Below are positions 2,723 to 56,257 of a stretch of 64,000 bases of DNA, in pieces. The translations under genes and the position numbers were made by a program. The number at the start of each line of letters is the position of its first letter. Positions within the stretch are counted from its first letter, which is position 1. The stretch comes from an uncultured archaeon (GTDB lineage Archaea > Asgardarchaeota > Lokiarchaeia > Sigyniarchaeales > SOKP01). The notes under the pieces were generated by a model that worked only from the letters and a program-made list of their open reading frames with translations, searched no databases and was not told where the DNA came from. The stretch lies in the NCBI GenBank assembly GCA_964435435.1, contig CAYSZJ010000002.1, positions 7,468 through 71,467 of the forward strand. The letters run 5' to 3'.

Positions 2723-3122
2723 TTTCTTTACCTCAAAATTTGCTTTTTTTCCTCTTTCAATGTATTTTCTTATATGAGTGAATAAACCGCTCATATTCTT
2801 TTTCAATTAAAACGACACACCAAGCGAACAAATCCGTGGAATGATTAAAAGAAAAAGAATATAAGGATTTGTTTTACTCATAATAATAAAACTGCGAGTA
2901 AGTCAACTAAGGATAATTTGTTCCTTAAGAATTCTCTTAAAACAGTTTTATTCGTAATCATTACTATATAATTTAAGTGTTTTTTAATATTAAAATATGT
3001 TAGGTTTTTCATTTCTATGGCTAGAGTCCTTTTTTTAATTCATAGTGCAAATTGTTAAATACAATTTCTTTTTTTTACAATTCACACCTTGATTAAATTA
3101 TAACTCTTATTATTTTTTAAGT

Positions 3123-39960: not shown

Positions 39961-41211
39961 ATGAATTCTTCTATTGGTAATAAAATTAAATTTAGTAAGT
40001 CTAACCTTCACATTTCAGAGGAACTTATTAAAAATGTAAGAGGAATGGTAAATTATTGCTATAATTGTAATCGATGTGTAAATGTTTGTCCGCTTTCGCA
40101 TTTAAACGTTTTTAATCCAAGAAAGTTGATTGAAGATTTAATATTTATTTCATTAGAAGAAGCATTAAATAATAATAATATATGGAATTGTCTCACATGT
40201 AGTCAATGTAATATATATTGTCCAATGTGTCAAGAGGATCGAGGATTAAGAATACCTGAATTAATTTTAGAATTGAGAAAGACGCTAAGAAATAATAAAA
40301 CACAAATTAAGAGAATTTCTCAATGTGAAACACATAATGATATTTTCCCATTAATTTCGAAAATAATGGCAAATAATTCTATTAATCCAAACAAATTAGA
40401 ATTTTTAGAGGAAAAACTATTAAAAACGACAGACTCGGGCGAAATTGCATACTTTATTGGATGTTTACCTTTAATGGACGAAATTTTTTATAATTTCGAT
40501 TTCAAATATATCGATATAGCTATTACAATAATAAGTTTACTTAATAAAGTTAACATAGCACCAGTAGTTTTAAACGAAAAATGTTGTGGACATGATATTT
40601 TATGGGGAAGAGGTGAAATTAAAACTTTTAAAAAATTTGCTGAATACAATACTCAGCTTTACAGAGATGCTGGGGTAAAAACAATTATTGTTGGATGTGC
40701 TGAAGGATATAGAACATGGAAATTTGATTATCCAAAAATAATAGAAGATTTTGATTTTAAAGTCTTGCATTTTTCTGAATTTTTTCTAAAAGAAAAAATT
40801 CTTGAAAATGTTAGATTTCCTCATAATTTTGAGGTTAAAGTAACATATCATGATTCTTGTCGAATGGGGCGTTTAGGTGGAAAATTATATAATGCCCCAA
40901 GAGAATTAATTAATCAAATTCCAGGAGTACAATTGATTGAAATGGAGAATATTAAAGATGATGCTGATTGTTGTGGTGTTTCAACATTTACAAATTGTAA
41001 TGAATTTACCCATGTTTTAAGGAAAAATCGTATCAATGAAGCTGTTAATACTGGTGCAGATTATTTGATTGTTCCTTGCCCAAAATGCCTAACACATTTT
41101 AATTGCTATATTAATGAATTTTCTTCAAATAAAGAACATAATGAACTAAGAAATAAAATAAAGGTGGTAGATTTAGCAAGTTTTATTGGAAAATTGTTAA
41201 TGCTTGTTTAA
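39961..41211 (+). CDS. hdrD: HdrD/GlcF-like Fe-S protein (2x[4Fe-4S] plus two CCG domains)
   Basis: CYNCNRCVNVCP and CLTCSQCNIYCP. CCG-domain motifs YFIGCLP..CCGHD and YHDSCRMGR..CCGVS. Confidence 0.8.
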   Translation: MNSSIGNKIKFSKSNLHISEELIKNVRGMVNYCYNCNRCVNVCPLSHLNVFNPRKLIEDLIFISLEEALNNNNIWNCLTCSQCNIYCPMCQEDRGLRIPELILELRKTLRNNKTQIKRISQCETHNDIFPLISKIMANNSINPNKLEFLEEKLLKTTDSGEIAYFIGCLPLMDEIFYNFDFKYIDIAITIISLLNKVNIAPVVLNEKCCGHDILWGRGEIKTFKKFAEYNTQLYRDAGVKTIIVGCAEGYRTWKFDYPKIIEDFDFKVLHFSEFFLKEKILENVRFPHNFEVKVTYHDSCRMGRLGGKLYNAPRELINQIPGVQLIEMENIKDDADCCGVSTFTNCNEFTHVLRKNRINEAVNTGADYLIVPCPKCLTHFNCYINEFSSNKEHNELRNKIKVVDLASFIGKLLMLV

Positions 41212-41266: not shown

Positions 41267-44200
41267 ATGTCGAATTTGCAGAGTAGTGTTTTAGTTATCG
41301 GAGGTGGAATTGCTGGTATACAGACATCATTAGATCTCACTAAATTAGGTTTTAAAGTATATTTAGTCGAAATTAAGCCAACGATAGGAGGAACCATGGC
41401 TCAATTAGATAAAATATTTCCTACACTTGATTGTAGTTTGTGCATTTTAGCTCCAAAAATGGTTGATGTGTATAGAAATCCAAATATAGAATTATTTTCT
41501 TATTCTTACGTCAAAAAAATTCAAGGATCAGTTGGAAATTATACTATTACTGTTGTAAAAAAGCCAAGATATATTAAAGAAGATGTTTGTAAAGGCTGCG
41601 GAGAATGCGAAAAATTTTGTCCAGTTAAAGGGATTCCTAGCGAATTTAATACCCATCTAAAAACTCGAGGTGCTATATATATTCCTTTTCCATCATCAGT
41701 ACCTCCAGTTTATCTTATTGATAATACAAGATGTTTATATTTAAATTATAGAATATGTGGACTTTGTGCTAAAGTTTGTGATGCAAATGCGATAGATTTT
41801 TTACAAAAACCAGAAGAAATAAATTTAAATGTAGGAGCTATTGTTATTGCTACAGGAAATAACCAAGAAATGCCAGAGGTATATGATTCTTTTGCTGGTT
41901 CCTCCCCCAATGTTTTATCTAGTATGCAATTTGAACGTCTTTTATCTGCAAATGGACCTACTAGCGGTCAAATCATAAGATTAGATGATAAAAAACATCC
42001 TCATTCAATTGCTTTTATACAATGTGTGGGTTCTCGAGATGTTCATCATCCTGAATGTAAAAAATATTGTTCTGCAATATGTTGTATGAATTCGGCTAAA
42101 GAAGCAATTGTTGTTAAAGAACATGATCCAGATATTGAATGTTATATTTTTAATACAGAAATCAGAGCTAAAGGTAAGAATTTTTATGAATTTATTGAAA
42201 AAGGTAAAATTGAATATAACGTTAAATATATTAATGGTCATGTTTCATATATCAAAGAAAATTTAGATAACGGGAAATTAAAATTATATTACGAAGATAT
42301 TGATAAAGGAAAAGTTAGAACTTTTGAAGTAGATATGGCCATATTAGCTAGTGCATTATCTCCAACTCCCTCTTACTATAAACTTTTGGAACAACTTAAT
42401 GTGGGTTGTAACGATTTAGGTTATATTCGTGAAGAAGATATAATCTTACTTGAAGAAAAGAATATATTTGTAACTGGTTATTCTAGAAAACCAAATGATA
42501 TTCAAATGGCTGTTGCTGAAGGTTCTGCATGCGCTGCCAAAATTAGTGAAAAATTATATCCTGTTAGATTTCAAAATATAAAAAAATTTAAATATCCTCC
42601 AGAAATACCGGTAAAACCAGAGGATGAACCTCGTGTAGGTATTTTAGTTTGTCAATGTGGTATTAATATCGGAGGTATTGTTAATGTTGCCGAAGTAGTA
42701 GATTATGCTTCGAAATTACCATATGTTGTTCATGTTGAAGAAAATATGTATTCCTGTAGTTCTGATTCCCAAGAACGAATTAAAGAATTAATAAAAAAAT
42801 ATAATCTTAATAGATTTATAGTTGCTTCTTGTACTCCTCGAACTCATGATCAACTTTTTAAGAATACTCTAAGAGAGGTTGGATTAAATCCATTTTTATT
42901 TGAACTAGTAAATATAAGAAACCAAGATTCTTGGGTCCATCAAAATGAACCTAAAAAGGCTACTAAAAAAGCATGTGATTTAATCAGAATGTATTTGGCA
43001 AAGGTAATTAATTTAAAACCATTAGAAAATATTAAAGTTAAAGTTGAAAAATCAACTCTAATAATTGGTGGTGGAATAGCAGGAATAAGTGCTGCACATA
43101 ATTTAGCAAACCAAGGATTTGAAATTTATCTTGTAGATAAGAAACCTTTTCTTGGTGGCGTCGCACTCGAATTTATTGATTTATATTATATACCTATTAC
43201 AAAAAATGAAATTTTACGGGAAATTAATGATTTGAAAAACAAATCTAATGTTCATATTTTATTTAATTCAAAAATAGTTGATATTCAAGGTTATGTTGGA
43301 AATTATCAGGTTAAAGTTAAGAATATTCAAGATAAATCAAAAGATCAAATTTTCAAAGTGGGTACAATAATAGTAGCCACGGGAACTAAACAAATTAAGA
43401 CTAGTAGATGGCTAGATTTATCAGAAAGATATCCTAAACGTGTACTTACCCAAACAGAATTAACAGCGATTAAGGATGTAGATATTCCTGGGTTTAAAGA
43501 TGCTACAATAATATTATGCGTAGATCAAAGAAGAAACGAATTTAATGACGGAGATAATATAAAAACCTATTGTTCAAATATTTGTTGTGGAGTAGCATTA
43601 AAAAATATTGAAAAATTATTAAACATCAACCCTAATGCGCATATTCATATTTTATATAGAGAATTTCAATTCTCAGATTTAAATGCTGAAAATCTATGGC
43701 GAAGGCTTCGAAAAAAAGTTATTTATGAAAAATATCGTTCAATTGATGATATCAAAATCAGTGATGAAAATGGTAATTTCCATATTTTATATAAAAACAT
43801 AGGCGCTCAAACAGATATAGAATATAATACTGATTTATTAATATTGGCTACCCCTAAAGTTCCTGCTAATGATACTGACCAATTAGCAAAGTTTTTAAAA
43901 GTATCAACAAATAAAGATGGATTTTTCTTAGAAGCTGATGCAAAGCTTAGACCAATAGATTTTGCAACAGAAGGTATTTTCCTATGTGGAGGGGCTCATT
44001 GGCCAAAATGGATTGGCGAAAGTATTATTCAAGCTTATGGAGCTGCTGGTAGAGCGGCAATAATAATGGTTAAAGGGGAAATAGAAACTGAATGTATAAC
44101 TTCTTATATAGATGAAGAAAAATGCATAGGATGCGGTGCATGTATTGAGATCTGCCCTTATAACGCTATTGAATTAGTTGAAACTAATAAACAAATGGGT

Positions 44201-44380
44201 TTATATACTACTACTTTAAGAAAAGCTCATATAATTGAAGTTGTTTGTAAAGGCTGTGGAGCTTGTGTTGTAGAATGCTCAAATGGAGCGATTAATCAAA
44301 ATCATTTTAGTAAATTTCAGATTAATAAAATGATTGATTTATTACCCAGTATAGATTTAATCAGTTATAAAGTTACTTAA
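41267..44380 (+). CDS. hdrA: tandem HdrA-HdrA fusion (Cys-type heterodisulfide reductase subunit A)
   Basis: 1037-aa ORF. Module 1: VLVIGGGIAGIQ, FPTLDCSLCILAPKMV, inserted ferredoxin CKGCGECEKFCP. Module 2: VGILVCQCGINIGG, IVASCTPRTH, NIRNQDSWVH, LIIGGGIAGISAA and a C-terminal 2x[4Fe-4S] (CIGCGACIEICP, CKGCGACVVEC). Confidence 0.85.
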   Translation: MSNLQSSVLVIGGGIAGIQTSLDLTKLGFKVYLVEIKPTIGGTMAQLDKIFPTLDCSLCILAPKMVDVYRNPNIELFSYSYVKKIQGSVGNYTITVVKKPRYIKEDVCKGCGECEKFCPVKGIPSEFNTHLKTRGAIYIPFPSSVPPVYLIDNTRCLYLNYRICGLCAKVCDANAIDFLQKPEEINLNVGAIVIATGNNQEMPEVYDSFAGSSPNVLSSMQFERLLSANGPTSGQIIRLDDKKHPHSIAFIQCVGSRDVHHPECKKYCSAICCMNSAKEAIVVKEHDPDIECYIFNTEIRAKGKNFYEFIEKGKIEYNVKYINGHVSYIKENLDNGKLKLYYEDIDKGKVRTFEVDMAILASALSPTPSYYKLLEQLNVGCNDLGYIREEDIILLEEKNIFVTGYSRKPNDIQMAVAEGSACAAKISEKLYPVRFQNIKKFKYPPEIPVKPEDEPRVGILVCQCGINIGGIVNVAEVVDYASKLPYVVHVEENMYSCSSDSQERIKELIKKYNLNRFIVASCTPRTHDQLFKNTLREVGLNPFLFELVNIRNQDSWVHQNEPKKATKKACDLIRMYLAKVINLKPLENIKVKVEKSTLIIGGGIAGISAAHNLANQGFEIYLVDKKPFLGGVALEFIDLYYIPITKNEILREINDLKNKSNVHILFNSKIVDIQGYVGNYQVKVKNIQDKSKDQIFKVGTIIVATGTKQIKTSRWLDLSERYPKRVLTQTELTAIKDVDIPGFKDATIILCVDQRRNEFNDGDNIKTYCSNICCGVALKNIEKLLNINPNAHIHILYREFQFSDLNAENLWRRLRKKVIYEKYRSIDDIKISDENGNFHILYKNIGAQTDIEYNTDLLILATPKVPANDTDQLAKFLKVSTNKDGFFLEADAKLRPIDFATEGIFLCGGAHWPKWIGESIIQAYGAAGRAAIIMVKGEIETECITSYIDEEKCIGCGACIEICPYNAIELVETNKQMGLYTTTLRKAHIIEVVCKGCGACVVECSNGAINQNHFSKFQINKMIDLLPSIDLISYKVT

Positions 44381-44881: not shown

Positions 44882-46000
44882 ATGACTGAATCAGAATCTC
44901 AGAAACTTTTGGACAATGAGGTAAAAACATTTGAAGATCTTGAAAATGAAGTAATTAAAAATAATAAGTGCTGTGCATGTGGAGCCTGTGTAGCATATTG
45001 TGAGAGTCAGGGTTTTAATGTTATTGAGATGAATGGATATATTCCTGGGTTTATATCAGAAAAGAGTGTTAGTAACTGTACTAAATGTGGTGTTTGTTAT
45101 TATATTTGTCCTCAAACTTCAACAATAATAGAAGAATTAAATGCTGCATATTCTATTGAAGATAATATTGGACATATTATAAAAATTTTAGCAGCTAAAA
45201 CAACAGACTCAGCAATAGAAAAAGTTGGACAAGATGGAGGAATAGTTTCAACAATCCTAAATTATTTATTTGAAAAAAATAAAATTGACGCAGCTATAGT
45301 TTCAGAATTTGATTATAAATTTAAACCAGTTCCAAAAATTATATTTAATAAAGAAGACTTGTTAAAATCAGCAGGCACACGTTATTCCATTTCTCCTCAA
45401 ATATTTCCTTTAAAGGATTTATATCATATTTCACAAGAAATAATTAAGAAAAAAAGGATTTTTGACATCGACCAATTACGCGTGGCATTTATTGGTACAC
45501 CTTGTCAATGTAGAGCAATAAGTAAAATGCGTTTCTTACATGTTAAACCAGCTCATGTTATTAAATATATATTAAGTCTTTTTTGTTTCGAAAATTTTGA
45601 TTATAGTAAATTATATGATATTTTGAGAAAAGAAACGAATGTAGATCCAATTAACATAAGAAAAACCTGGATAAAGAGAAATTTTTTTATAGCTACTAGA
45701 AATAATGAACAATTCGAAGTAAACATCAAAATACTAGACCCTGCTGTTAGAAAACATTGCCATGAATGTAATGAATTTACTGGTCGATTTTCGGATATTA
45801 GTATTGGATCATCTGGAGCACCAAAAGAATATTCAATGATAATAATTCGAACAGAAATTGGTTATAAAATAATAAAATCTATTCTTTCTTATGGATTAAT
45901 TGAACAATTTGTTGTACCAGCTAGCCAAAATGCAGATTGGATAAATAAGAAACTTAATTGGTATAATAAATTAATTTCTTTCAAAGCAAATCATAATTAA
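44882..46000 (+). CDS. FrhB/FdhB-family protein with N-terminal 2x[4Fe-4S]
   Basis: CCACGACVAYC and CTKCGVCYYICP. Also GQDGGIVSTIL, IGTPCQCRA and SDISIGSSGAP. Confidence 0.8.
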   Translation: MTESESQKLLDNEVKTFEDLENEVIKNNKCCACGACVAYCESQGFNVIEMNGYIPGFISEKSVSNCTKCGVCYYICPQTSTIIEELNAAYSIEDNIGHIIKILAAKTTDSAIEKVGQDGGIVSTILNYLFEKNKIDAAIVSEFDYKFKPVPKIIFNKEDLLKSAGTRYSISPQIFPLKDLYHISQEIIKKKRIFDIDQLRVAFIGTPCQCRAISKMRFLHVKPAHVIKYILSLFCFENFDYSKLYDILRKETNVDPINIRKTWIKRNFFIATRNNEQFEVNIKILDPAVRKHCHECNEFTGRFSDISIGSSGAPKEYSMIIIRTEIGYKIIKSILSYGLIEQFVVPASQNADWINKKLNWYNKLISFKANHN

Positions 46001-46040
46001 ATTTCTTTATTCTAAAAGATAATATAATCTTTAAAAAAAG

Positions 46041-46124
46041 AGTAATTGGTGTTCATATGCTGGTACAGATCTTGCAGATGTTAGTAGAATTCAATATACT
46101 CCTCATCTTAGAGTAATAAGAAAT
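46041..46124 (+). pseudogene. orphan fragment of an mvhD-like gene
   Basis: It reads SNWCSYAGTDLADVSRIQYTPHLRVIRN, against intact CNWCSYAGADLAGVSRFQYPPNIRIIRV. A stop lies immediately upstream, there is no start, and no homology downstream. Many differences are synonymous. Confidence 0.6.
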
Positions 46125-46190
46125 AAAAAAATAAGTTTGAAAAAAATAAATGCTTATTTATATTCATTTCTTATATTGATAGTATTGAAC

Positions 46191-47303
46191 TCAATTTACT
46201 GATTTGCCCTTAATAAAATTTTCAAATCGTTCTAGTTTGGATTGAGAAAATTGAATAAGTATATTTTTCATTTCATTTTTTTTTGTAACATCTAATTCTC
46301 CACAATTAATTATTCCTGCTTCGATTGCTTTTGAAAATACCTTTTTTCCTTTATCAGTTCGAGTAATAACTGTCGTAAATTTTTCTTGCGATCCTAACCC
46401 ACCAAAAGATATATCTGCATAGATATTAGTAAAATCCTTACATGCATTACATGCCGAACGCATGCAATCATTTAGTTTACTGAATGGGATATGTACGGTT
46501 TTTTCTCCTGATCTCCTATTTCTTAATCTAAGTATTAAATCTTTTTTAATATTTATCTTCTTGATATTCTCGAATTTTATTTTAAAATCCTTTTCAAATT
46601 TGTCAACTTTTATATTATCAAAAAAGAAATTTTCGTAACAAAACAATCCTAAGCAAATTTCTATATTCTCAGAGGGAACTATGCCTAAATCTTGCATACA
46701 TCTTATTGTATAAATTTGGCATGGCGTTCCAACTATTGCTAATTTTTTAAATTTAAATCTTTTTAATAATGGAAAGGAACTAGTGTAGGTATGAAATTTT
46801 TGAATTTCATCTAATTGCATCGAAATATCTAATTTAATACCTGAAGCATTAATTAAATCTTCTTTTGTTTTGGCGATGATAGCTTCTCTTGCAAAGGGAG
46901 TTTTTGTCTTAGCGACAATTGCTCCATCAATTAATTTTTGTTGTAACATAAAATGAATTAGTGAGTTTACAACACCTCCATCCGTTCCATAATTCAAAAA
47001 ATCTCTTTCTTTCGCCTGACAGGAATAAATATTATCTATATAACCTATAGGCTTTGAAGAAAAACCTGAAAATTTAAAGGTATCATTAAGCTCATCATCT
47101 AAAATATGCGTTTGTGGACAAATAACAAAACATATTCCACACTCAAGACATTTTTCCTCGTTTAAATATTCTGGGGGTGAATTAGGTTGCTTATAACCTA
47201 TTACATCTTGCTCAAGAGAATTACAAAAACTTACACACCCACCACATTGTTGACAAATACCTCTTTCATGTACTTCCTTTATCAAATCTTTAAATGTTTT
47301 CAT
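46191..47303 (-). CDS. FrhB/FdhB-family protein with N-terminal 2x[4Fe-4S]
   Basis: CQQCGGCVSFC and CLECGICFVICP. Also GTDGGVVNSLI, VGTPCQIYT and ADISFGGLGS. Confidence 0.8.
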   Translation of the reverse strand: MKTFKDLIKEVHERGICQQCGGCVSFCNSLEQDVIGYKQPNSPPEYLNEEKCLECGICFVICPQTHILDDELNDTFKFSGFSSKPIGYIDNIYSCQAKERDFLNYGTDGGVVNSLIHFMLQQKLIDGAIVAKTKTPFAREAIIAKTKEDLINASGIKLDISMQLDEIQKFHTYTSSFPLLKRFKFKKLAIVGTPCQIYTIRCMQDLGIVPSENIEICLGLFCYENFFFDNIKVDKFEKDFKIKFENIKKINIKKDLILRLRNRRSGEKTVHIPFSKLNDCMRSACNACKDFTNIYADISFGGLGSQEKFTTVITRTDKGKKVFSKAIEAGIINCGELDVTKKNEMKNILIQFSQSKLERFENFIKGKSVN

Positions 47304-47517
47304 ATTAATACCACTTCTTTTCTAATTCCATATTTTTTATTTTACATTTCGAAAATTTTTATGACTAATTAGATAAATCTTATGATCACTATGATAAATA
47401 TGGTTGTCATAACATTTTAATCTATTCGATATTGATAATTAGCTATAATTTGTAATTTAATATTTTTAAAATAAAAAATATTCTTATAAGAGAAAATAAG
47501 TAATAATTTAAAATAAT

Positions 47518-47587
47518 TCCAAAACCTCGTGCTACGAGTTAGTCTTCTCTCAACTATCATTTTCTTGAGAGTATCATTCGTTTTGGA
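47518..47587 (-). promoter_or_regulatory. candidate SECIS element (eukaryote-like, kink-turn type) in the hdrA 3' UTR
   Basis: mRNA sense, directly after the UAA: UCCAAAAC-GAAUGAUA-CUCUCAA-GAAAAUGAUAG-UUGAGAG-AAGACUAA-CUCGU-AGC-ACGAG-GUUUUGGA. It has an 8-bp basal helix and a 7-bp upper helix. AUGA on the 5' strand faces GA on the 3' strand (potential tandem G.A pairs), and the apical loop is A-rich. Confidence 0.55.
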
Positions 47588-49627
47588 TTAAGGTTTTATA
47601 GATGAGGAGGGAGTTGGAACACGTTTTATTTCTTCTTCAACAAGTTCATGAACAACTAAAACAGGTTCAACCTCATAACTACAGATTCCTTTGATTTCTT
47701 CAATGAGTTGTTTATTTCTATAATATTTTAATTCGATTGCTCTAGCAGGACAAGAAGAAATACATACTCCGCAACCTTTACATTTCAAATCGTCAACAAT
47801 AGCTACAGCTTCAGAATTAACTTTTATCGCTTTATAATTACAAAGTTTCTCACATCTATGACAGCCCATACAAAGATCTTCATTTACTTCTGCAATTATT
47901 AATTCTTGGCTTATATTATCATCAGAAAATAGAGTTGCTACTTTGCTTGCTGCTGCTAAAGCTGTCGATACTGAATATGGTATATTTTTCGGACCAGAAG
48001 CACATCCACATATATAAATTCCTGTATTCATTGTTTCTTGAGGCTTTAGGCATCCATGAACCTCGTTTAAAAATCCACTTGGCCCCTTTTTAAGACCTAT
48101 ATTCTTAATGATTTCTTCTGTTCCTTTAGACACAACCATACCTGTTGACAATACGACTAAATCGGCATTAACATCTAATATATCACCAGTTAAAGATGAA
48201 CAAGCGTGTACTCTTAAGTTTTTAGTTATAGAATCTTCGGTGATTTTACCTACTTTTCCGCGAATCATAAGAACACCCGATTCTCGTACTTTTCGATAAT
48301 ATTCCTCACTTCTTTTGTCTGTTGTTCGAATATCGATATAGAAAATAACAACATTAGTGTTTGGATACTCTTGTTTTAATAATTGAGCATTCTTTAGAGC
48401 AACACTACAACAAACACCTGAGCAATAAGTATTAGCTCTTAAAGATCTTGATCCGACACATTGGATCATTACAATCGTCTTAGGCGTCTTACCATCAGTA
48501 ATTCTACATAAGTGTCCCTCAGTTGGTCCAATTGGACTAAGCATTCTTTCCAATTCTATTTGAGTGATTATATTAGGATAATATCCATAATTATATTCAT
48601 TAGTTTCCCAAATCGGATATTCATCCCATCCAGTAGCTATAATTACTGCTCCAACTTTAATATCGATATATTCTGTTTCTTGCTCAAAATCAATAGCTTC
48701 AGCAGGACAAATTCTCTGACATGATTTACAATTAATACAGACATTTTTATCTATAACAGCAAGTTTAGGGACCGCTTGAGGGAAAGGAACATATATTGCA
48801 CTCCTTTCTCCTATACATCGGTTGAATTCATTAGGAATTTTTATAGGACATTTAGTAGTACATAACTCACATCCTGCACATTTATTTTCATCAATATAAC
48901 GAGGATTTTTACGAATTTTGACACTAAAATTTCCAGGAATTCCACTAAATTCAACAACTTCACTATAAGTCAGCAATGTTATATTTGGGTGTTTTGATGT
49001 ATTCACCATAATTGGGGCTAATACTCATATACCACAATCGTCTGTAGGAAAAATTCTATCTAGTTGTGCCATTTTTCCTCCAATAGTTGGTTCTTTTTCA
49101 ACTAAGTAAATTTTAAATCCTTGATGGGCTAAATCTAACGCTGCATTCATTCCAGCAATTCCAGCGCCAATTATTAACACATTCTTTTCTATTGGGATTT
49201 TTTTATAGTGTATCATTTCTAATTCTCGTGCACGATTTATACCTGCTTGAACTAATCTTTTTGCTTTTTCTGTAGCTCTTTTTTTATCCTTTGCATGAAC
49301 GAATGAACATTGTTCACGCAAATTAACCATTTGGAAGTAATATGGACTTAATCCTGCTTCAACTAGAACAGCTCTATATGTTGATTCATGTATTTTTGGT
49401 GTGCAAGCTGCAACTACAATTCTATTTAAATCTTGCTCTAAGATGTCATCTTTAATAATCTTTTGCCCAGGATCGCTGCATGTAAAATTATTACATTTAG
49501 CAATCATTACATTTGGTAATGTTTCTACAAAATCTCTTACTGCGTCGCAATCAATAGTAGCTCCAATATTGACTCCTCATCTACATATATAAACTCCGAT
49601 TCGAATTTTGGTCTGTTTTTCAGACAT
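47588..49627 (-). CDS. hdrA: heterodisulfide reductase subunit A with two in-frame UGA (selenocysteine) codons
   Basis: ATG 49627, with AAGGGTG upstream. MSEKQTKIRIGVYICR-TGA(49577-49579)-GVNIGATIDCD.. runs into the 160-aa ORF. ..DRIFPTDDCGI-TGA(49025-49027)-VLAPIMV runs into the 473-aa ORF. All three parts share one frame, and both UGAs align with Cys in the two paralogues. Confidence 0.85.
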
Positions 49628-50009
49628 ATAATACACCCTTGTTAAACGTCACCAAATTTTTATTATTTCAATATATAATTTTTTTATTTTTGATGCATAA
49701 CCAATAATTATTACAAGCGCTTTTACCCCATGTAAATGGCAATATAATTAAAATTTAAAGAATCTGATAAGAAAAATAATAGTAAATTTGATAATTTTTA
49801 TTGTCAAAATGTTTTTTTTAAAACAAGTTTTTTATTCATTTCAAAAATCAGGTGATCAATTCTAATACATAACTTTATATGATCTGACAATAATATTTAT
49901 CATGAAGATCATAAAATTTGTTAATTTAGTCATTTAATTTTTATTTTTGATTAAAGCTAAGATTTATTAAAATTATAAATTTTTAAAGAAAGATGAGGTT
50001 AGCTAAAAG

Positions 50010-52559
50010 TTGGACGTATATTCTATTTTGTCTCACCCCTTTAGAAGGAAGATTTTGTTGCTTTTAGAAAAAGCAGGCTATATTCCGTATACAGAATTAA
50101 TGGAAAAACTTGGTTTAGAAACAACTGGACAATTAAATTTTCATCTCAAAAAAATTGGTTCCCTTATTGATAAAGACAAAAAATCTTATTTTCTTACGGA
50201 AGATGGAAAACGTATACTTAAAATACTCAACCTTAATAAAAGAATTCTTTCTGGAGAAGATATTGATGACTATTTAGAATCGAAGGGGAGCGAAATAAGC
50301 AGAATAGGAGTTATAATTTGCAATTGCAATACAGAAATTTCGAGAGTAATTAATATTATATCTCTCGAAAATTATGTAAAAAAATTAAAAAATGTTGTTT
50401 CAATTAGAGTTTTCGAAAATTTATGTCAACAAAAAAATTTTACTAAAATTACAAATTGGGTTAAAGATAATTTTTTGAATAAAATTGTGATAGCAGGATG
50501 TTCTCCTAGAACGCATCAACTTCTGTTTGAACGAATTTTTGATGAGGTTATTGATCGACCAAATATAGAAATAGCAAATATTAGAGAACAATGTTGTTGG
50601 GTACATGAATTTAAAGAAAAAAATATTGAGCCCTTAATTTCTTTAGAAAAAGCTAAACTATTGATTGAAGCTGCTGTTGAGCGGGTAAACCTACAAAAGA
50701 AAGTAAAAATTAAGAGAGTTGAAGTAGAAAAGAGCTGTGCTATCTTAGGTGGGGGAATCTCAGGTATGACACTTGCTTTAAATTTGGCTCGAGCAGATAT
50801 TAAAGTGTATCTCATCGAAAAATCACCCACATTAGGAGGTAAGGTTGCTAGATGGCATCGTGTCCATCAAATGGGTGATTGTTCTATTTGTTTTATTTCG
50901 GAATTAATAAGTGAATTAGTGAAAGAAAAAAATATTGAAATCCTTACAAGCACCGAAGTTGAAAATGTATCAGGAGAGGTTGGTGAATTTAGTATTGATT
51001 TGATAAAGAAACCTCGGTTTGTAGATACTAAAAAATGTACTGGGTGTAAACAATGTATAGATGTATGTAGCATTGAAAAGTCAAATGAGTATGAGTGTGG
51101 GTTAACAAGTAGAAAAGTTATATATATTCCATTTATTCATTGCTATCCTTATGTCCCTTTAATTGATGAAGAAGATATAAAAAATTGTCTTAATTGTAGA
51201 ATTTGCGAACGGGCATGTGTCAATAAGGCAATAGATTTAACTCAAAAACATGAAAAAATTAAAGTTAAAGTCGGTGCAAAAGTTATTGCTATTGGTTCTG
51301 ATTTATATGATCATTTAGAGTCTTATCATTATAATCCATACAAAAATATTATAACTTCAGCTGAGTTTGAGCGGATATTATCTTCTGATGGGATTACTGA
51401 AGGAAAACTTCTTAGATTGTCTGATAAAAAGCCCATAAATTCGGTTTCTATTCTCCAAGAGATTGGTCCATCAAAATATCTTGCTGATTACTCTGAAATT
51501 TTGGCTGAAAAATATATTGAAGATATTAAAATAAAAAACCCTGATTGCGAAGTCAATATTTTTTACGATTTAGGTAAATTAAAAGAAAGGGATAAAGTTT
51601 TATTAAGATCAACTAACCCTGCATTTATATACGCAGATAAAATTACTATTGAATCTAATAAAGATGTGAATTATGTCATCGCTGATAGTATCGAATTTCC
51701 AAGTGATTTAATCGTATTAAATCTAAAATTTATCCCAAATAAAGATTTGAAAAGACTTCGAAAAGTTATGGATTTTACATTAGATGATAATGGATTTATG
51801 AGTGAAGAAACTCTAGCGTCTGGTATTTATGGTGTTGGAACGATTTTCGGTCCATTGGATTATAATTCCACTATTTCAACCGTTAATAATGTTGCATTAA
51901 AAATCATCTCATTACTCTTCCAAGATTATCTAATTGCAGAATTTACTGGCATAGAACTTGATGAAAGTAAATGTGGTCTATGCGGATTATGCTCACAAAT
52001 CTGCCCTTATAATGCTATTACACTAGAGTCTGAAAAAGTATGTATCGATAAATTTAAATGCAAGGGATGTGGGACTTGTGTTAGTATCTGTCCAACAAAT
52101 GCCATAGATCTCAATTTAGATACATCAGAAAAGATTCTTAAAACAATTGAAGTTTTTTCAAAATTTAATAGAAATCCAAAAATAATTGCTTTTTGTTGTC
52201 GTTCTTGTGGTTATGCTGCTGCTGATAATGCTGGTTTAAAAAAGATTTCATATTATCCTAATATTTTTATCATTCGAGTTCCTTGTACAGGAAGGATTGA
52301 CACTAATTTCATTATTAAATCATTTGAAATGGGATTTGATGGAGTAATGATAATTGGTTGCAGAAAAGAAGCATGCAGATATATTGATGGAATAGAAAAA
52401 ATCGAAAATAAAATTAAAATATTAAAAAATTTATTAGGAGTAAATTTTAGCAAACGAATTATTCTTGAACATATGAATGCTGTGGAGGGTAATAAGTTTG
52501 CTGAAATCGTAAATAGTTTTTATTTAGAATTATCAGAGGAGATTAAATTTGAAGTCTAA
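50010..52559 (+). CDS. ArsR-type wHTH - HdrA - MvhD triple fusion
   Basis: 849-aa ORF. N-terminus ILSHPFRRKILLLLEKAGYIPYTELMEKLGLETTGQLNFHLKKI. HdrA part IGVIICNCNTE, IAGCSPRTH, NIREQCCWVH, ILGGGISGMTLA, GDCSICF, CTGCKQCIDVC. C-terminus IIAFCCRSCGYAAADNAG..VPCTGRI..GVMIIGCRKEACRY (MvhD). Confidence 0.8.
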   Translation: MDVYSILSHPFRRKILLLLEKAGYIPYTELMEKLGLETTGQLNFHLKKIGSLIDKDKKSYFLTEDGKRILKILNLNKRILSGEDIDDYLESKGSEISRIGVIICNCNTEISRVINIISLENYVKKLKNVVSIRVFENLCQQKNFTKITNWVKDNFLNKIVIAGCSPRTHQLLFERIFDEVIDRPNIEIANIREQCCWVHEFKEKNIEPLISLEKAKLLIEAAVERVNLQKKVKIKRVEVEKSCAILGGGISGMTLALNLARADIKVYLIEKSPTLGGKVARWHRVHQMGDCSICFISELISELVKEKNIEILTSTEVENVSGEVGEFSIDLIKKPRFVDTKKCTGCKQCIDVCSIEKSNEYECGLTSRKVIYIPFIHCYPYVPLIDEEDIKNCLNCRICERACVNKAIDLTQKHEKIKVKVGAKVIAIGSDLYDHLESYHYNPYKNIITSAEFERILSSDGITEGKLLRLSDKKPINSVSILQEIGPSKYLADYSEILAEKYIEDIKIKNPDCEVNIFYDLGKLKERDKVLLRSTNPAFIYADKITIESNKDVNYVIADSIEFPSDLIVLNLKFIPNKDLKRLRKVMDFTLDDNGFMSEETLASGIYGVGTIFGPLDYNSTISTVNNVALKIISLLFQDYLIAEFTGIELDESKCGLCGLCSQICPYNAITLESEKVCIDKFKCKGCGTCVSICPTNAIDLNLDTSEKILKTIEVFSKFNRNPKIIAFCCRSCGYAAADNAGLKKISYYPNIFIIRVPCTGRIDTNFIIKSFEMGFDGVMIIGCRKEACRYIDGIEKIENKIKILKNLLGVNFSKRIILEHMNAVEGNKFAEIVNSFYLELSEEIKFEV

Positions 52560-53307
52560 AATTATTATAACCTCTCTAACATCATGCAGTGGTTGCATCT
52601 CAACTTTAATTTCATTAGACATATTTCCTCAATTCCTTGAACGAACAAGGATAATACATTTTCCATTTATTTCGGATGCTGAAAAAATCGAAGATTGTGA
52701 TATTGCATTGGTAGAAGGATGTATTTCTAATGAAAAAGAAATTCCACTTCTTAAAAGTATCCGAAAAAATGCTAAAAAGGTTTATGCAATAGGTTCTTGT
52801 GCAGCATTCGGAGGGATTCTAAGCCTTTCAAATTCAATTATCGCAGAACCAATCTCTAATTATATTGAAATCGAGGGAATAATTCCTGGATGTGCTCCAC
52901 CAACAAAACTATTTGGAAATTTTCTAATTAGATTAATTGAAAACAAAGAATTTAAATTGTCTGAAAAAAATATGTGTGCTGGTTGCCCATTAAGAGAAGA
53001 TATTGAAATTAATTTTACTAATGAAATAAATAAAATTAACCCAAATTTTGAGGAAATTAATCTTGATGATGAGAACTCCAAATGCTTTTTAAAAAGAGGA
53101 ATCTTATGTTTAGGCCCAATAACTCGTGATGGATGTGAATATAAATGTATAGAATATGGAATTCCATGTGAAGGTTGTATGGGACCTGTTTCAAAAGGTT
53201 TTACGTCGAATATTATTAATCTTTTAAGTTTAATTAATTTTTCTGAGGATTTAAAAAATTATGGAGGTTTATTTTATCGTTTTTCAAGACCAAAGATAAA
53301 ATGGTGA
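52549..53307 (+). CDS. mvhG: [NiFe]-hydrogenase small subunit, MvhG-like (group 3)
   Basis: SLTSCSGCIST, GSCAAFGGI, PGCAPP and the distal cluster region CAGCPL..CLGPITRDGCEYKCIEYGIPCEGCMGP. TTG start 6 nt after GAGGAG, overlapping the upstream gene by 11 nt. Confidence 0.85.
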   Translation: MKSKIIITSLTSCSGCISTLISLDIFPQFLERTRIIHFPFISDAEKIEDCDIALVEGCISNEKEIPLLKSIRKNAKKVYAIGSCAAFGGILSLSNSIIAEPISNYIEIEGIIPGCAPPTKLFGNFLIRLIENKEFKLSEKNMCAGCPLREDIEINFTNEINKINPNFEEINLDDENSKCFLKRGILCLGPITRDGCEYKCIEYGIPCEGCMGPVSKGFTSNIINLLSLINFSEDLKNYGGLFYRFSRPKIKW

Positions 53308-53314
53308 TGCTTTA

Positions 53315-54616
53315 TTGTTGAAAACTGTTGATGTTTGTACCCGTGTTGAGGGACATGGAAATGTAAACATATTAATTCAGGATGACAATGTTTCAAATGT
53401 TGACTTTGAAATTTCAGCATATCGCGGATTTGAAAAATTTTTAATTAGTAAAAGATTAGGCGATATGCCTAAATTAATTTCTCGAATATGTGGTTTATGT
53501 TATGCATCGCAAGCAATCGCTAGTTGTAAAGCAATCGAAAACTTATACGATGTAGAAATTATAGAACAATCAATTCTTTTAAGACGACTATTGCTATGTG
53601 GAGAATTAATTAAATCGCATTGTATGCATTTTTTCTTCCAGTCATTACCAGATCTCTTAACAATTTTTAATATAAGCCAAAAACCACTTTCTCTATATGA
53701 ATTAATTAATTTCAATCCACAGTTAACAACAAACCTGTATGAACTAATTAAATTTGGAAATGAGATTGAAATTTTATTTGGTGGGAGATCTGCACATTTG
53801 ATTTCTCCGATTCCAGGTGGATTAATTTATTCACCTTCTCGAAAGAATATTACTATAGCTCAAAAATATATGCAAAAAGCTTCAAATAATTTAGAAATGA
53901 TTATTGAAACTTTTATTGAGTATTTTTCTAATAAAATTCCACCAGAAGAATTTTCACTTCCAAATCCAATTTATATTGGAATAAATAATCTGGGAAATTA
54001 TGATAGATATTCGGGTATTTTTAAGATCATAGAATCGGAAAGAAAAGCAATTGATTTCCAAGAAAAATCTTATTCTCTTTATTTTGATAAGGATATTGAT
54101 TTACGTGGAATAGATTTTCATTTTGATAAAAATAATGTATTAACTGGTCCAATAGCTAGGTTTAAAATCATTGAAACCTATGGAAATGATAAAGTTTCCA
54201 CATATCTTGAAAATTTTGATAAATCTTGGACTAATAATATTCTATTTTCTGAGTTTCTTAAGTTATTAGAAATGTTCGTTGAAACTGAACAAGCGTTAAA
54301 CATTTTAGATACTCCTTCTTTATCCATAAAGCAGAAACTTCCTACTCTAAGATCCATAAAAAATTCAGAAGGTATTGGATTTGTTGAGGCTCCAAGAGGA
54401 ATACTTATGCATCATTATTATATTGATAAGAACGACTTAATTATTAAATTGAAGCTTTTTATTGCGACTGAAATAAATATTCCGCTTATTAATGAAATGA
54501 TTACGAAATATGCCCAAAAATTATATGAAAAAACAGGCGATTTAAATTTAATTAAAAAACAAGTTCAAATGATTATCAGAGCTTTTGATCCTTGTATATC
54601 ATGTGCTACACATTAA
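53315..54616 (+). CDS. mvhA: [NiFe]-hydrogenase large subunit, MvhA-like (group 3)
   Basis: TRVEGHG, RICGLCYASQ (N-terminal Ni-binding motif) and C-terminal DPCISCATH, followed directly by a stop. Confidence 0.85.
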   Translation: MLKTVDVCTRVEGHGNVNILIQDDNVSNVDFEISAYRGFEKFLISKRLGDMPKLISRICGLCYASQAIASCKAIENLYDVEIIEQSILLRRLLLCGELIKSHCMHFFFQSLPDLLTIFNISQKPLSLYELINFNPQLTTNLYELIKFGNEIEILFGGRSAHLISPIPGGLIYSPSRKNITIAQKYMQKASNNLEMIIETFIEYFSNKIPPEEFSLPNPIYIGINNLGNYDRYSGIFKIIESERKAIDFQEKSYSLYFDKDIDLRGIDFHFDKNNVLTGPIARFKIIETYGNDKVSTYLENFDKSWTNNILFSEFLKLLEMFVETEQALNILDTPSLSIKQKLPTLRSIKNSEGIGFVEAPRGILMHHYYIDKNDLIIKLKLFIATEINIPLINEMITKYAQKLYEKTGDLNLIKKQVQMIIRAFDPCISCATH

Positions 54617-54820: not shown

Positions 54821-56257
54821 ATGACAACTAGAAAGATATTAAGTGATTATTTTCAATGTGATATTTCAGAATTTGGATTCCAAGACTTATATGATTTAGT
54901 CATAAGTAAAAATATTTGCGTTCTTTGTGGAACTTGTATGTTAATTTGTCCCCGCATTGGTATGACTAAGAATCAACCTTCACTTTTGGATTATGATCCA
55001 GAATGTTCCTTATGTTTCAAATACTGTGCAAAAACATACTTTCCAGAGAAATTCTTTGAGAAGGAAATTTTTAATAATCAAATCCCAAAAGATCCCTTAA
55101 TAGGATATTATCAAAAAACTACTGTGGCTAAAAGTACTGATGATATTATTTTAAAACAAGCTCAAAATGGTGGAATAGTTACTACTTTACTTATTCACGC
55201 TCTGAATAATAAATTAATTGATGGAGTTCTACTTACAGGTAGAGATGAAAATTGGATTCCAAAACCGATTATTGCTAGAACTCCAAAAGAAATTTTAGAT
55301 GCAACAGGATCGATATATGCTTTATCTCCTAGTCTAATAACTTATAAAGATGCTGTGTATAAATATAAATTAAAACGGCTTGCATTTGTTGGTATGCCAT
55401 GCCAAATTCAAGCAGTAAGAAAACTTCAGTTTTTTCCTCCCCTCTCAGATAAATTTGGAAAATTTACACTTATAATTGGTCTTTTTTGTACTTCAAATTA
55501 TTCTTATGATTCAATGAAAGAAATTATTCAGAAAGAAATAAAAGTGCCTATAACTAAGGTAAAGAAACTTGATATAGCACAGGGTAAATTTATTGTTTAC
55601 ACAAAAGATGGACTGGTTAAAGAAATTCCCTTAAAAAAAGTTAAAAAATATAATTGGCCTAGTTGCCAATTCTGTAAAGATTATACTGCTGAATTTTCAG
55701 ACATATCTGTAGGAAGTGTTGGCGCTCCTGAAAATGGCTGGAATAGTGTAATTATTCGTTCTGATGTTGGTAGGAAAATATTTAATGATACTTTAGCTTC
55801 TAAGAAAATTAAAGTTGACGATCAAATAGATCTTGAAAAAATTAAGAATGATTCTTTAAGGAAGAAATCAAAAGTAATACAGATTGATGAAAAAATCTTA
55901 TCAGCAATGCGTTTATTTAATGTTTCTAAACTTGAGGGAAAAACTTTTACAACTCTTCTTTCTTTGGAGCATGCTGATTTGTCTATGTTGAGTGCAGTGA
56001 TGAACAGAGAACAACATGAGATTGTTAATGCTCTTGAAATGTTACAAAAGAGAAATTGGATATTTTCAACTAATGAATTTTATAAGCCATATAATCCAGT
56101 CAAGATATTTAAAGAAGAAATATACCAGTTAAAGAAAAGGCTTTATAATGACATAGATAATTTTAAATCAGAGGCATTAAAAGAGTTAAAAACAATTTAT
56201 TTCCAAAATAATCTCAAAGATGTAAAAGATATGGAATTTATTGATATTTTATTCTAA
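54821..56257 (+). CDS. FrhB/FdhB-family protein with a C-terminal TrmB-like wHTH and coiled-coil extension
   Basis: CVLCGTCMLICP, AQNGGIVTTLL, VGMPCQIQA and SDISVGSVGAP. The C-terminal roughly 130 aa include MRLFNVSKLEGKTFTTLLSLEHADLSMLSAVMNREQHEIVNALEMLQKRNWI. Confidence 0.75.
   Translation: MTTRKILSDYFQCDISEFGFQDLYDLVISKNICVLCGTCMLICPRIGMTKNQPSLLDYDPECSLCFKYCAKTYFPEKFFEKEIFNNQIPKDPLIGYYQKTTVAKSTDDIILKQAQNGGIVTTLLIHALNNKLIDGVLLTGRDENWIPKPIIARTPKEILDATGSIYALSPSLITYKDAVYKYKLKRLAFVGMPCQIQAVRKLQFFPPLSDKFGKFTLIIGLFCTSNYSYDSMKEIIQKEIKVPITKVKKLDIAQGKFIVYTKDGLVKEIPLKKVKKYNWPSCQFCKDYTAEFSDISVGSVGAPENGWNSVIIRSDVGRKIFNDTLASKKIKVDDQIDLEKIKNDSLRKKSKVIQIDEKILSAMRLFNVSKLEGKTFTTLLSLEHADLSMLSAVMNREQHEIVNALEMLQKRNWIFSTNEFYKPYNPVKIFKEEIYQLKKRLYNDIDNFKSEALKELKTIYFQNNLKDVKDMEFIDILF

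Follow-up and report, generated by a model that had tools for sequence, protein, structure and literature searches.

The analysed window, a stretch of 64,000 nucleotides from a contig of an uncultured Lokiarchaeia archaeon, carries an hdrA-type gene followed by a SECIS-like element and accompanied by genes of hydrogenase subunits and of other HdrA-related proteins (Table 1). Translation of the minus strand from 49627 to 47588 gave a frame of 679 codons in which the only internal stops were the TGA codons 17 and 201; neither TAA or TAG codons nor frameshifts were found. In the list of open reading frames, the gene appears as a 473-aa piece (47588..49009) and a 160-aa piece (49025..49507), which open with ATG codons at 49009 and 49507, respectively. 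The public gene calls of the source contig split it likewise, into 160 and 473 aa. An earlier note on this DNA had joined these pieces and a short N-terminal one into a single frame separated by TGA codons and had warned that the ORF track would present the gene as fragments; the translation agreed exactly with its coordinates, and the public calls contain the very error it predicted. Since TAA and TAG made up 5.3% of all-frame codons in the window (GC content 29.4%), a run of 206 codons without either, such as the one that precedes the 473-aa ORF, would arise by chance with a probability of only approximately 1.3e-5, and no such case was obtained in 100000 shuffles. The orthologous hdrA genes all ended with TAA or TAG and none with TGA.

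Table 1. Positions of hdrA, its recoding signals, and neighbouring genes in the window.
Feature	Position	Strand	Description
hdrA CDS	47588..49627	minus	679 sense codons + TAA; ATG start 49627-49625
UGA 1, predicted Sec17	49577..49579	minus	codon 17, ICR-U-GVNIGA, conserved N-terminal-domain Cys column
UGA 2, predicted Sec201	49025..49027	minus	codon 201, FPTDDCGI-U-VLAPIMV, canonical HdrA Sec/Cys197 position
True hdrA stop TAA	47588..47590	minus	last base coincides with position 1 of the SECIS match
lokiSECIS-type (eukaryote-like, type I) SECIS	47515..47588	minus	match of covariance model R1 abutting the hdrA stop
SECIS lower stem	47587-47580 paired with 47525-47518	minus
SECIS AUGA core	47577-47574	minus
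SECIS upper stem	47573-47565 paired with 47553-47545	minus	9 positions
SECIS apical loop	47564-47554	minus	11 nt, A-rich
SECIS 3' GA	47544-47543	minus
SECIS side hairpin	47538-47526	minus
FrhB/FdhB-like F420-binding Fe-S protein gene	46191..47303	minus	211 nt downstream of SECIS; no in-frame UGA
HdrC/B-like fusion (Fer4 + 2x CCG)	39961-41211		neighbouring convergent operon
Divergent operon beside hdrA	50010..54616	plus
wHTH-HdrA-MvhD fusion	50010-52559	plus
MvhG	52549-53307	plus	252 aa as in orthologues; genuine TGA stop at 53305-53307
[NiFe] hydrogenase large subunit, Cys-type	53315-54616	plus	ends DPCISCATH

The identification of the product as HdrA in the earlier note was borne out by end-to-end homology to structurally characterised proteins. 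Residues 9–649 aligned with residues 5–650 of HdrA 9sfi_A (E 4.5e-217, about 725 bits), and further matches were obtained with 5odc_A (E 1.1e-209), 8rvu_a (6e-197), and 7bkb_A (2e-163). The protein consists of an N-terminal Fe-S domain, a FAD/thioredoxin-reductase-like domain, an inserted ferredoxin domain, and a C-terminal ferredoxin domain, which is followed by a poorly conserved tail of roughly 29 aa. The Pfam/NCBIfam profile search placed Pyr_redox_2, NAD_binding_8, and FAD_binding_2 at residues 149–333 and Fer4 families at residues 235–318 and 579–641; the translation also shows an IIGAGIAG motif and several of the CxxCxxCxxxCP type. Because the NCBIfam equivalog cut-offs were missed (811 vs. 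1100 bits for HdrA2, 609 vs. 1300, and 606 vs. 1400), the protein, as judged from its sequence, is a member of the HdrA family and not a demonstrated subunit of a CoM-S-S-CoB reductase.

In the gene neighbourhood, no hdrBC genes were found adjacent to hdrA; an HdrC/B-like fusion is encoded in the neighbouring convergent operon. The protein encoded at 41267–44380 is a 1037-aa fusion and an HdrA paralogue. The divergent operon beside hdrA was found in the same neighbourhood in the related loci L021–L025. Sec-type VhuU/VhuA were sought in the window, and the hydrogenase large subunit proved to be of the Cys type by its C-terminal motif; the two MvhD copies encoded there are Cys forms as well. When TGA was read as sense, no other convincing TGA-interrupted gene was revealed in the window. 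A class-III aminotransferase gene (16943-18088) is truly broken by an in-frame TAA. A scan for sigma-70 promoters and terminators was uninformative, the DNA being archaeal. Genes for tRNA-Sec, EFSec, PSTK, SepSecS, and SelD were absent from the window and from the remaining ~18 kb of the 82-kb contig, and ARAGORN detected no tRNAs, including tRNA-Sec, in the window. The Sec trait has been reported for 55.5% of the surveyed Asgard genomes and for 85.9% of Lokiarchaeia/Helarchaeales (PMC11227280).

Both UGA codons fall on cysteine columns of HdrA. The surroundings of residue 17 read IGVYICR-U-GVNIGATIDCDAVR, and those of residue 201 read IFPTDDCGI-U-VLAPIMVNTSK. In the alignment with HdrA proteins of solved structure, the column of codon 17 is Cys in 9sfi, 5odc, and 8rvu and corresponds to Cys13 in the numbering of 5ODC; the column of codon 201 is X (Sec) in 9sfi_A and Cys (FPTNDCSICILAP) in 5odc_A. 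Residues C15, U17, C50, C75, and U201 all align with conserved cysteines of 5odc/9sfi and of the paralogues in the window; U201 takes the place of the Cys197-type residue in the FPTxDC-x-x-C motif. The placement of the two UGAs on Cys residues, which the earlier note had derived from these paralogues, was thus confirmed by the structure alignments and by the paralogues themselves. The motifs that it had listed, VCQCGINIGG (residue 461) and FPTLDCSLCILAPKMV (residue 51) in the 41267–44380 protein and ICNCNTEIS (residue 103) and GDCSICFISE (residue 289) in the 50010–52559 protein, are present and align as claimed.

A comparison with related loci demonstrated that TGA occupies both columns in 19 of the 19 loci covering both sites, namely 16 full-length orthologues in different MAGs of Promethearchaeota, Hodarchaeota, and Hermodarchaeota and the sequence types L020, L021, and L024, which lack vhuD. 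The partial locus L017 has TGA at the single site it covers. Codons beside the TGA vary synonymously between loci, and TGA itself is invariant. Stops in non-Cys columns of orthologues, the pattern that the earlier note had named as contrary to its reading, were not observed; TGA was on Cys columns throughout. The dN/dS values were well below 1 on either side of each TGA: they were about 0.05–0.35 in segments 1–16, 18–40, and 41–200, and the five residues of segment 202–206 were invariant. Purifying selection therefore extends over codons 1–16, 18–40, and 202–206, that is, the stretches skipped by the ORF callers.

Downstream of the gene, an Rfam search gave no match to a SECIS family, either at the gathering threshold in the whole window or at E<=10 in the region 46000–50200. 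Since none of the Rfam models seems to recognise the Loki type, we built our own covariance model (R1) from an alignment (A1) of 16 SECIS elements of other species, from which the window was excluded. Covariation was detected in this alignment at eight pairs, a number exceeded in 0 of 500 shuffles. The model gave a single match in the window (47588..47515, 65.1 bits, E 1.6e-14; next best E 0.72), and it matched the homologous position in L020–L025 with 70–84 bits. The element has the core order AUGA-UACUCUCAA-GAAAAUGAUAG-UUGAGAGAA-GA, in agreement with the lokiSECIS definition of an AUGA ... [G/A]A kink-turn core around a 9-position stem whose 11-nt apical loop opens with several A in a row. 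Its upper stem is made up of seven Watson-Crick pairs, one A.A mismatch, and then one U-A pair. The minimum free energy fold is identical to the model structure (-20.4 kcal/mol, z -4.23). Compensatory changes were found in all three helices, with G-C to A-U changes in the lower stem and the side hairpin. Directly 3' of either UGA, no bacterial-type hairpin was detected, and the folds there did not differ from those of shuffled sequences. The lokiSECIS-type element 3' of the stop is absent from the earlier note.

The Cys columns, the retention of TGA in relatives, the purifying selection, and the SECIS support the selenoprotein interpretation given in the earlier note. Both UGAs almost certainly encode selenocysteine, and we infer actual Sec insertion at these codons from the sequence features described above. 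The locus is, with high probability, a single Lokiarchaeia-type (Promethearchaeota) hdrA gene for a 679-residue flavin/iron-sulfur HdrA with two selenocysteines, U17 and U201.

The UGA codons might instead be read through with insertion of Cys or a near-cognate residue, at least in part, for example under selenium limitation. Such decoding would agree with the presence of Cys at the UGA columns in most HdrA proteins and with the lack of Sec machinery genes on the 82-kb contig, the window included. However, the gene is abutted by a conserved SECIS that is homologous to those of established Loki selenoproteins, and the solved structure 9sfi_A has Sec in the column of codon 201. In addition, TGA rather than TGT or TGC is strictly kept across species, which points to selection for Sec specifically. 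Cys read-through is therefore considered very unlikely.

Two in-frame stop codons would equally be expected if nonsense mutations had inactivated this copy of hdrA, and the aminotransferase gene mentioned above is an example of another gene in the window that is really broken. A pseudogene would not, however, be expected to have both of its stops as TGA exactly on Cys columns in all 19 loci covering both sites, or dN/dS well below 1 upstream of, between, and downstream of the TGAs. The 679 codons also contain neither TAA/TAG nor frameshifts, and a SECIS is present. The pseudogene reading is thus effectively refuted, and we assign it only a minute probability. No more credible is the separate translation of polypeptides of 16, about 160, and 473 aa that assemble into an HdrA-like complex. 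The ATGs at 49507 and 49009 could indeed start the two longer pieces, and HdrA often occurs in split or fused forms (PMC9012536), the 1037-aa fusion in the window being one of them. Nevertheless, residues 18–40 and 202–206, which lie between each TGA and the next ATG, are conserved with synonymous variation, which indicates that they are translated. In every species, each break consists of one TGA codon in a Cys column, and the SECIS 3' of the gene is conserved. For the homologues, several gene callers assumed that UGA encodes a standard amino acid throughout the genome (Trp or Gly, in a code of the 4/25 type), and homologues P0001–P0024 are deposited with W exactly at both UGA columns, but such a reassignment can be dismissed almost outright because TGA is still a stop codon elsewhere in the window, where it ends mvhG and several other well-delimited genes, because reading it as sense joins no other homologous ORFs, and because the in-frame TGAs are on Cys columns only and never on Trp or Gly columns.

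With respect to annotation, the gene should be entered as one 679-residue selenoprotein rather than as the 160-aa and 473-aa fragments of the source contig, and the Trp that several database homologues show at the UGA positions should be avoided.

We propose that Sec-tRNA(Sec) and the archaeal elongation factor specific for Sec would insert Sec at both UGAs during translation, and that this recoding would be directed by the eukaryote-like kink-turn SECIS in the 3' UTR. This one element presumably serves both codons and would then act over 1.45 kb (UGA2) and 2.0 kb (UGA1). In the HdrA of Methanothermococcus thermolithotrophicus (5odc), the column of codon 201 is occupied by Cys197, a ligand of the [4Fe-4S] cluster in the N-terminal domain of the partner protomer (PMC9012536), and Sec197 forms a Se-S bridge in M. 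maripaludis HdrA (PMC13518236). As the Cys197 equivalent, U201 may likewise be a ligand of that cluster or form a Se-S bridge as in M. maripaludis. Since U17 belongs to the N-terminal domain that contains this cluster, the two Sec residues probably act at one and the same site, where they would tune low-potential electron transfer in a module for flavin-based electron bifurcation. The partners of this module would be the Mvh-type hydrogenase and the FrhB-like proteins encoded nearby. Two Sec residues located in, or contributed to, the Fe-S site of the N-terminal domain would also bear on the role of Sec197 in electron-bifurcating HdrA.

The arrangement of the genes differs from the published one. 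According to the literature, hdrA and vhuD/frhD are always adjacent and have one common SECIS downstream of vhuD (PMC4989117; PMC11227280). In the window, no vhuD was found between 47588 and 47303 in any of the three frames downstream of hdrA, and an hdrA gene that lacks vhuD and has its own SECIS departs from this rule. Loci L020–L025, which represent at least three related sequence types, likewise have no vhuD downstream, and their SECIS directly follows hdrA. The tandem hdrA-vhuD is present in all 17 other related loci; at L006, the contig ends 27 nt past hdrA, and the downstream view is limited to the first few bases after the gene. In a distance-method phylogeny, the stand-alone hdrA genes branched outside the clade of the tandem hdrA-vhuD. 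As the vhuD-less arrangement demonstrates, the Loki SECIS need not accompany vhuD. The arrangement also offers a compact single-gene construct, with two distant UGAs and one SECIS, for testing long-range recoding by eukaryote-like SECIS elements in archaea.

These observations allow a more far-reaching reading, which we advance tentatively and regard as possible rather than probable: an old, vhuD-uncoupled Sec-HdrA lineage, or two, with its own SECIS, combined with a possible selenolate-ligated cluster or Se relay. The first part would be a conserved paralogous Asgard Sec-HdrA, in one or two lineages, with the lokiSECIS fused to the stop codon. As for the second, the Sec columns of Loki HdrAs (17 and 201 here, 50 and 75 in sister proteins) correspond to conserved Cys that belong to, or are contributed to, the N-terminal domain with its [4Fe-4S] cluster; therefore, the low-potential branch of the bifurcating flavin may include an Fe-S cluster whose ligands are in part or entirely selenolates, or else a Se-Se/Se-S relay. 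If this is true, the stand-alone lineage contradicts the rule of hdrA-vhuD adjacency with a common SECIS, and it isolates, in a single cistron, a natural case of one SECIS decoding two UGAs located 1.45 and 2.0 kb upstream.

The statement of the earlier note that Sec-containing HdrA is known in Methanococcales and has been reported for Lokiarchaeota is correct (PMC4989117). Multi-Sec HdrA and the lokiSECIS in Lokiarchaeota were published in 2016 by Mariotti et al. (PMC4989117). This type of gene has thus been described since 2016, and its recognition here is a correct but largely ordinary finding, which enlarges by one the well-documented class of multi-Sec HdrA proteins in Asgard archaea. In the HdrA set of Huang 2024 (PMC11227280 supplement), which includes members of the C-terminally extended subfamily, Sec is found at the first column in 353 sequences and at the second in at least 360. 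The present protein belongs to the same family as these and has the same two Sec columns, the N-terminal C-x-U-G and the position near 200. It also has in common with them a eukaryote-like SECIS with an AUGA core, a 9-position stem, and an 11-nt A-rich loop, as well as an HdrA stop that is never UGA. Unlike in the published multi-Sec Asgard HdrA, no vhuD lies downstream, and the first base of the SECIS is the final base of the hdrA stop.

HdrAu of Methanococcales (Sec197; 9sfi, M. maripaludis Hdr-Vhu-Fwd super-assembly, PMC13518236) is a full-length homologue with the common Sec column FPTDDC-x-x-U-(I/V)LAP, and a Vhu/Mvh-type hydrogenase is encoded nearby in both cases. However, the methanococcal protein has a single Sec, whereas here a second one is predicted in the N-terminal domain; the SECIS of methanogens is of the archaeal GAA_A type, whereas the element found here is eukaryote-like; and the host is not a methanogen. 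HdrA of Methanothermococcus thermolithotrophicus (5odc; HdrABC-MvhAGD) consists of the same domains, but it has Cys, not Sec, at both UGA columns and is encoded with the hdrBC/mvh partners of the methanogenic pathway.

Translation of the minus strand showed that hdrA occupies a single frame of 679 sense codons closed by TAA, with exactly two internal stops, both TGA, at codons 17 and 201. The earlier note had read three ORF pieces as one frame split by these TGA codons, and its coordinates proved exact. The mechanical ORF list contained only the 160-aa and 473-aa pieces, and the gene is fragmented likewise in the public gene calls for the source contig (ENA ERZ23499107, scaffold_57, 82,146 bp). 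The window has a G+C content of 29.4%, and TAA and TAG together form 5.3% of all-frame codons; from this share, the chance that the 206 codons 5' of the 473-aa ORF lack both is ~1.3e-5, and none of 100,000 shuffles of this stretch was free of them.

Coordinates of the hdrA gene, its SECIS element and other genes of the window
Feature	Position	Strand	Remark
hdrA	49627..47588	-	
UGA1 (codon 17)	49577-49579	-	
UGA2 (codon 201)	49025-49027	-	
hdrA TAA	47590-47588	-	
SECIS (R1 match)	47588..47515	-	
SECIS AUGA	47577-47574	-	canonical core
SECIS GA	47544-47543	-	canonical core
HdrA-HdrA fusion	41267-44380	+	1037 aa, complementary halves
HdrA-MvhD fusion	50010-52559	+	849 aa; wHTH/DUF7347 N-terminus, HdrA core, C-terminal MvhD (FlpD)
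FrhB/FdhB-like	44882-46000		F420-binding
FrhB/FdhB-like	46191-47303	-	F420-binding; TGA end at 46191-46193
FrhB/FdhB-like	54821-56257		F420-binding
FrhB/FdhB-like	56755-58638		F420-binding; weak MvhD-like N-terminal part
FrhB/FdhB-like	32909-35623		F420-binding; fused to GltD-like NAD(P)H flavoprotein
Class-III aminotransferase	16943-18088	+	in-frame TAA 17615-17617; ORFs of 224 and 126 aa
BBS2/BBS7-type beta-propeller protein	25265-26956	-	
Weak adaptor-complex mu-homology protein	27174-29327	-	
Class-I aminoacyl-tRNA synthetase	1-2794	-	986 aa; runs off window start
Arf/Ras-family small GTPase	L026 5212-6231		just outside window

With Cys put in at both UGA positions for the structure comparisons, the protein aligned end to end with 9sfi_A (residues 9-649 vs 5-650, E 4.5e-217), 5odc_A (E 1.1e-209), 8rvu_a (E 6e-197), and 7bkb_A (E 2e-163). 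Pfam detected a FAD/NAD Rossmann domain and two ferredoxin domains. Three HdrA models ranked top in NCBIfam, all under their equivalog cut-offs; therefore, the sequence is assigned to the HdrA family, not to a proven CoM-S-S-CoB reductase subunit. Codon 201 aligned with the selenocysteine of 9sfi_A (written X in FPTDDCAM-X-ILAP) and with Cys of 5odc_A (motif FPTNDCSICILAP), which is the Cys197 position of the structural literature. Codon 17 is matched, in each of the three top structures (9sfi_A, 5odc_A, and 8rvu_a), by the second Cys of an N-terminal motif, V-C-x-C-G-x-N-I. The motifs quoted earlier from both window paralogues also align, with Cys at columns 17 and 201; however, the second half of the 1037-aa fusion lacks the Cys197-type motif.

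A scan of species-representative genomes yielded 18 loci from Promethearchaeota, Hodarchaeota, and Hermodarchaeota MAGs. TGA was present at both homologous columns in all 16 loci covering the whole gene, and hdrA ended in TAA or TAG throughout. In codon alignments, the TGA codons were invariant, while adjacent codons differed at synonymous sites, including the five VLAPI codons between UGA2 and the ATG chosen by ORF finders; the residues of this segment (202-206) were the same in every comparison. Among the segments of sufficient size for dN/dS estimation, dN was far below dS against seven relatives in 1-16, 18-40, 41-200, and 207-650, and only the C-terminal tail (651-679) evolved freely. A split gene, with the pieces expressed separately, would leave segment 18-40 untranslated, yet this segment and 202-206 are conserved as amino acids, and this reading was rejected. 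Decay into a pseudogene was rejected because the TGAs are conserved at Cys columns and dN is far below dS. Reassignment of UGA fails, since TGA still terminates mvhG and other genes of this genome. With these alternatives rejected, the observation stands and we consider the Sec-HdrA interpretation very well supported. Sec-machinery genes and tRNA-Sec were not found in the window or the remainder of the contig; we infer Sec insertion from the cis evidence and from how widespread the trait is in this lineage.

At precisely the two UGA columns, the "full-length" database homologues (P0001-P0024) have W, a product of gene calling with a TGA=Trp code. Some have additional W at other Cys columns, namely CKN-W-ER within the ferredoxin CxxCxxCxxxCP motif (a third W; P0014, P0015, and P0018) and VVAS-W-TPK (P0024). 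These are further Sec columns for which the database annotation is wrong.

In other-species loci, a conserved element lies at the vhuD stop codon. Its lower stem opens onto an AUGA core and a 9-position stem capped by an 11-nt A-rich loop; next come [G/A]A, CUAAC, and a small side hairpin, before the lower stem closes. In the alignment of 16 such elements (A1), 92% of cells were paired under the proposed structure and eight pairs had changes on both sides; the structure outperformed 500 of 500 shuffles and all slid controls. The covariance model built from A1 with the window excluded (R1), run unfiltered on both strands of the window, gave one match (65.1 bits, E 1.6e-14; runner-up E 0.72), whose first base is the final A of the hdrA TAA. 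Its MFE fold equals the R1 structure (-20.4 kcal/mol, z -4.23, 0/200 shuffles equally stable). Compared with the elements linked to vhuD, G-C pairs of the lower stem and side hairpin have been replaced by A-U in a compensatory manner. AUGA lies 2000 nt 3' of UGA1 and 1448 nt 3' of UGA2. A bacterial-type local SECIS is unlikely, since no significant hairpin immediately follows either UGA. The same-strand FrhB-like gene 3' of the SECIS terminates in TGA, with a second in-frame TGA 9 codons further and TAA/TAG shortly after; recoding is not expected there because the gene is downstream of the element.

In tandem loci, vhuD, with two in-frame TGAs, follows hdrA after ~10-25 nt (17/17 other-species loci with downstream sequence). 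No vhuD was found in any frame between the window hdrA stop and the FrhB-like gene, nor downstream of hdrA in the related loci L020-L025. L020 (a 93%-identical relative), L021-L023, and L024/L025, which represent a second C-terminally extended type, have both TGAs and a SECIS that begins on the final base of the hdrA stop (R1 scores of 70-84 bits). The absence of vhuD beside the window hdrA is thus no accident of one contig. Where flanks were available, stand-alone loci shared the window neighbourhood: a divergent HdrA-MvhD fusion then mvhG, and a convergent frhB/mvhD/1037-aa hdrA-fusion cluster. L025 and the tandem locus L002 come from one MAG assembly (contig prefix CAZBNW01), so both types coexist as paralogues. 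The stand-alone arrangement appears to be old, not a recent deletion, since on the neighbour-joining tree such genes (window with L020; L021 with L024) fall outside the tandem clade; they are not monophyletic (monophyly in only 7/200 bootstraps). The hdrA start (locus position 4001 of L002-L019) is apparently TTG (LSEKQT…) in most tandem-type orthologues versus ATG (MSEKQT…) in the window.

The surrounding redox island comprises an HdrC/B-like fusion, the HdrA-HdrA fusion, MvhD, five FrhB-like genes within 26 kb, the HdrA-MvhD fusion, MvhG, and Cys-type MvhA. Its gene content would fit an electron-bifurcating complex linked to hydrogenase or F420 in a non-methanogenic Asgard archaeon. Such FrhB paralogue density near Hdr/Mvh genes is unusual. 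The 849-aa fusion gene is followed by mvhG and the Cys-type [NiFe] hydrogenase large subunit, and also adjoins stand-alone Sec-hdrA in L021-L025. The first half of the 1037-aa fusion has the Cys197-type motif FPTLDCSLCILAP at residue 51 and no N-terminal Fe-S domain; the second has this domain (VCQCGINIGG, residue 461), with PITKNEILRE in place of the Cys motif. Apart from the reversed order of its halves, this protein matches the built-in heterodimer idea put forward by Chadwick et al. (2022).

Elsewhere in the window, the aminotransferase gene forms one frame with a single in-frame TAA (…AGLKFG-stop-ELYDIAPDD…). Sec or Pyl was rejected there, the codon being neither TGA nor TAG; the probable explanation is a pseudogene or an error of assembly. 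The beta-propeller and mu-homology proteins and the nearby small GTPase are eukaryote-signature-like and consistent with Asgard origin. The first 3.5 kb seemingly lack ORFs >=100 aa because the synthetase gene extends past the start of the window and is unlisted.

Cys197, in the thioredoxin-reductase domain, ligates the [4Fe-4S] cluster that the partner HdrA protomer holds in its N-terminal domain (PMC9012536). In a 2026 cryo-EM study of M. maripaludis, density between cluster A3 and FAD was read as a Sec197-Cys selenosulfide, the role of which that study calls unresolved (PMC13518236). Codon 17 lies in the domain whose cluster is ligated by the partner Cys197, and sister Loki proteins have further Sec at columns 50 and 75, where the domain has its remaining conserved Cys. 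All Sec substitutions may therefore plausibly concern a single site on the bifurcating flavin's low-potential branch.

The two-Sec HdrA claimed by the earlier note is correct and already known (PMC4989117, PMC11227280). Mariotti et al. (2016) reported multi-Sec Loki HdrA with all Sec positions at conserved Cys columns, a eukaryote-like lokiSECIS, and UGA never as the HdrA terminator (PMC4989117). Huang et al. (2024) catalogued 1439 Asgard selenoproteins (PMC11227280); their supplementary HdrA FASTA has Sec at the C-x-U-G column in 353 sequences (XGV 149, XGI 204), at the canonical column in at least 360 (XVL 111, XIL 249), and at the AAC-TP column in 130, and includes the C-terminally extended subfamily. 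Both papers describe hdrA as invariably next to vhuD/frhD, with one SECIS 3' of vhuD serving the two genes (PMC4989117, PMC11227280), whereas the window hdrA has its own SECIS and no vhuD. This stand-alone arrangement is an exception absent from the main texts of both papers, a minor and previously unreported variation in how gene and SECIS are arranged.
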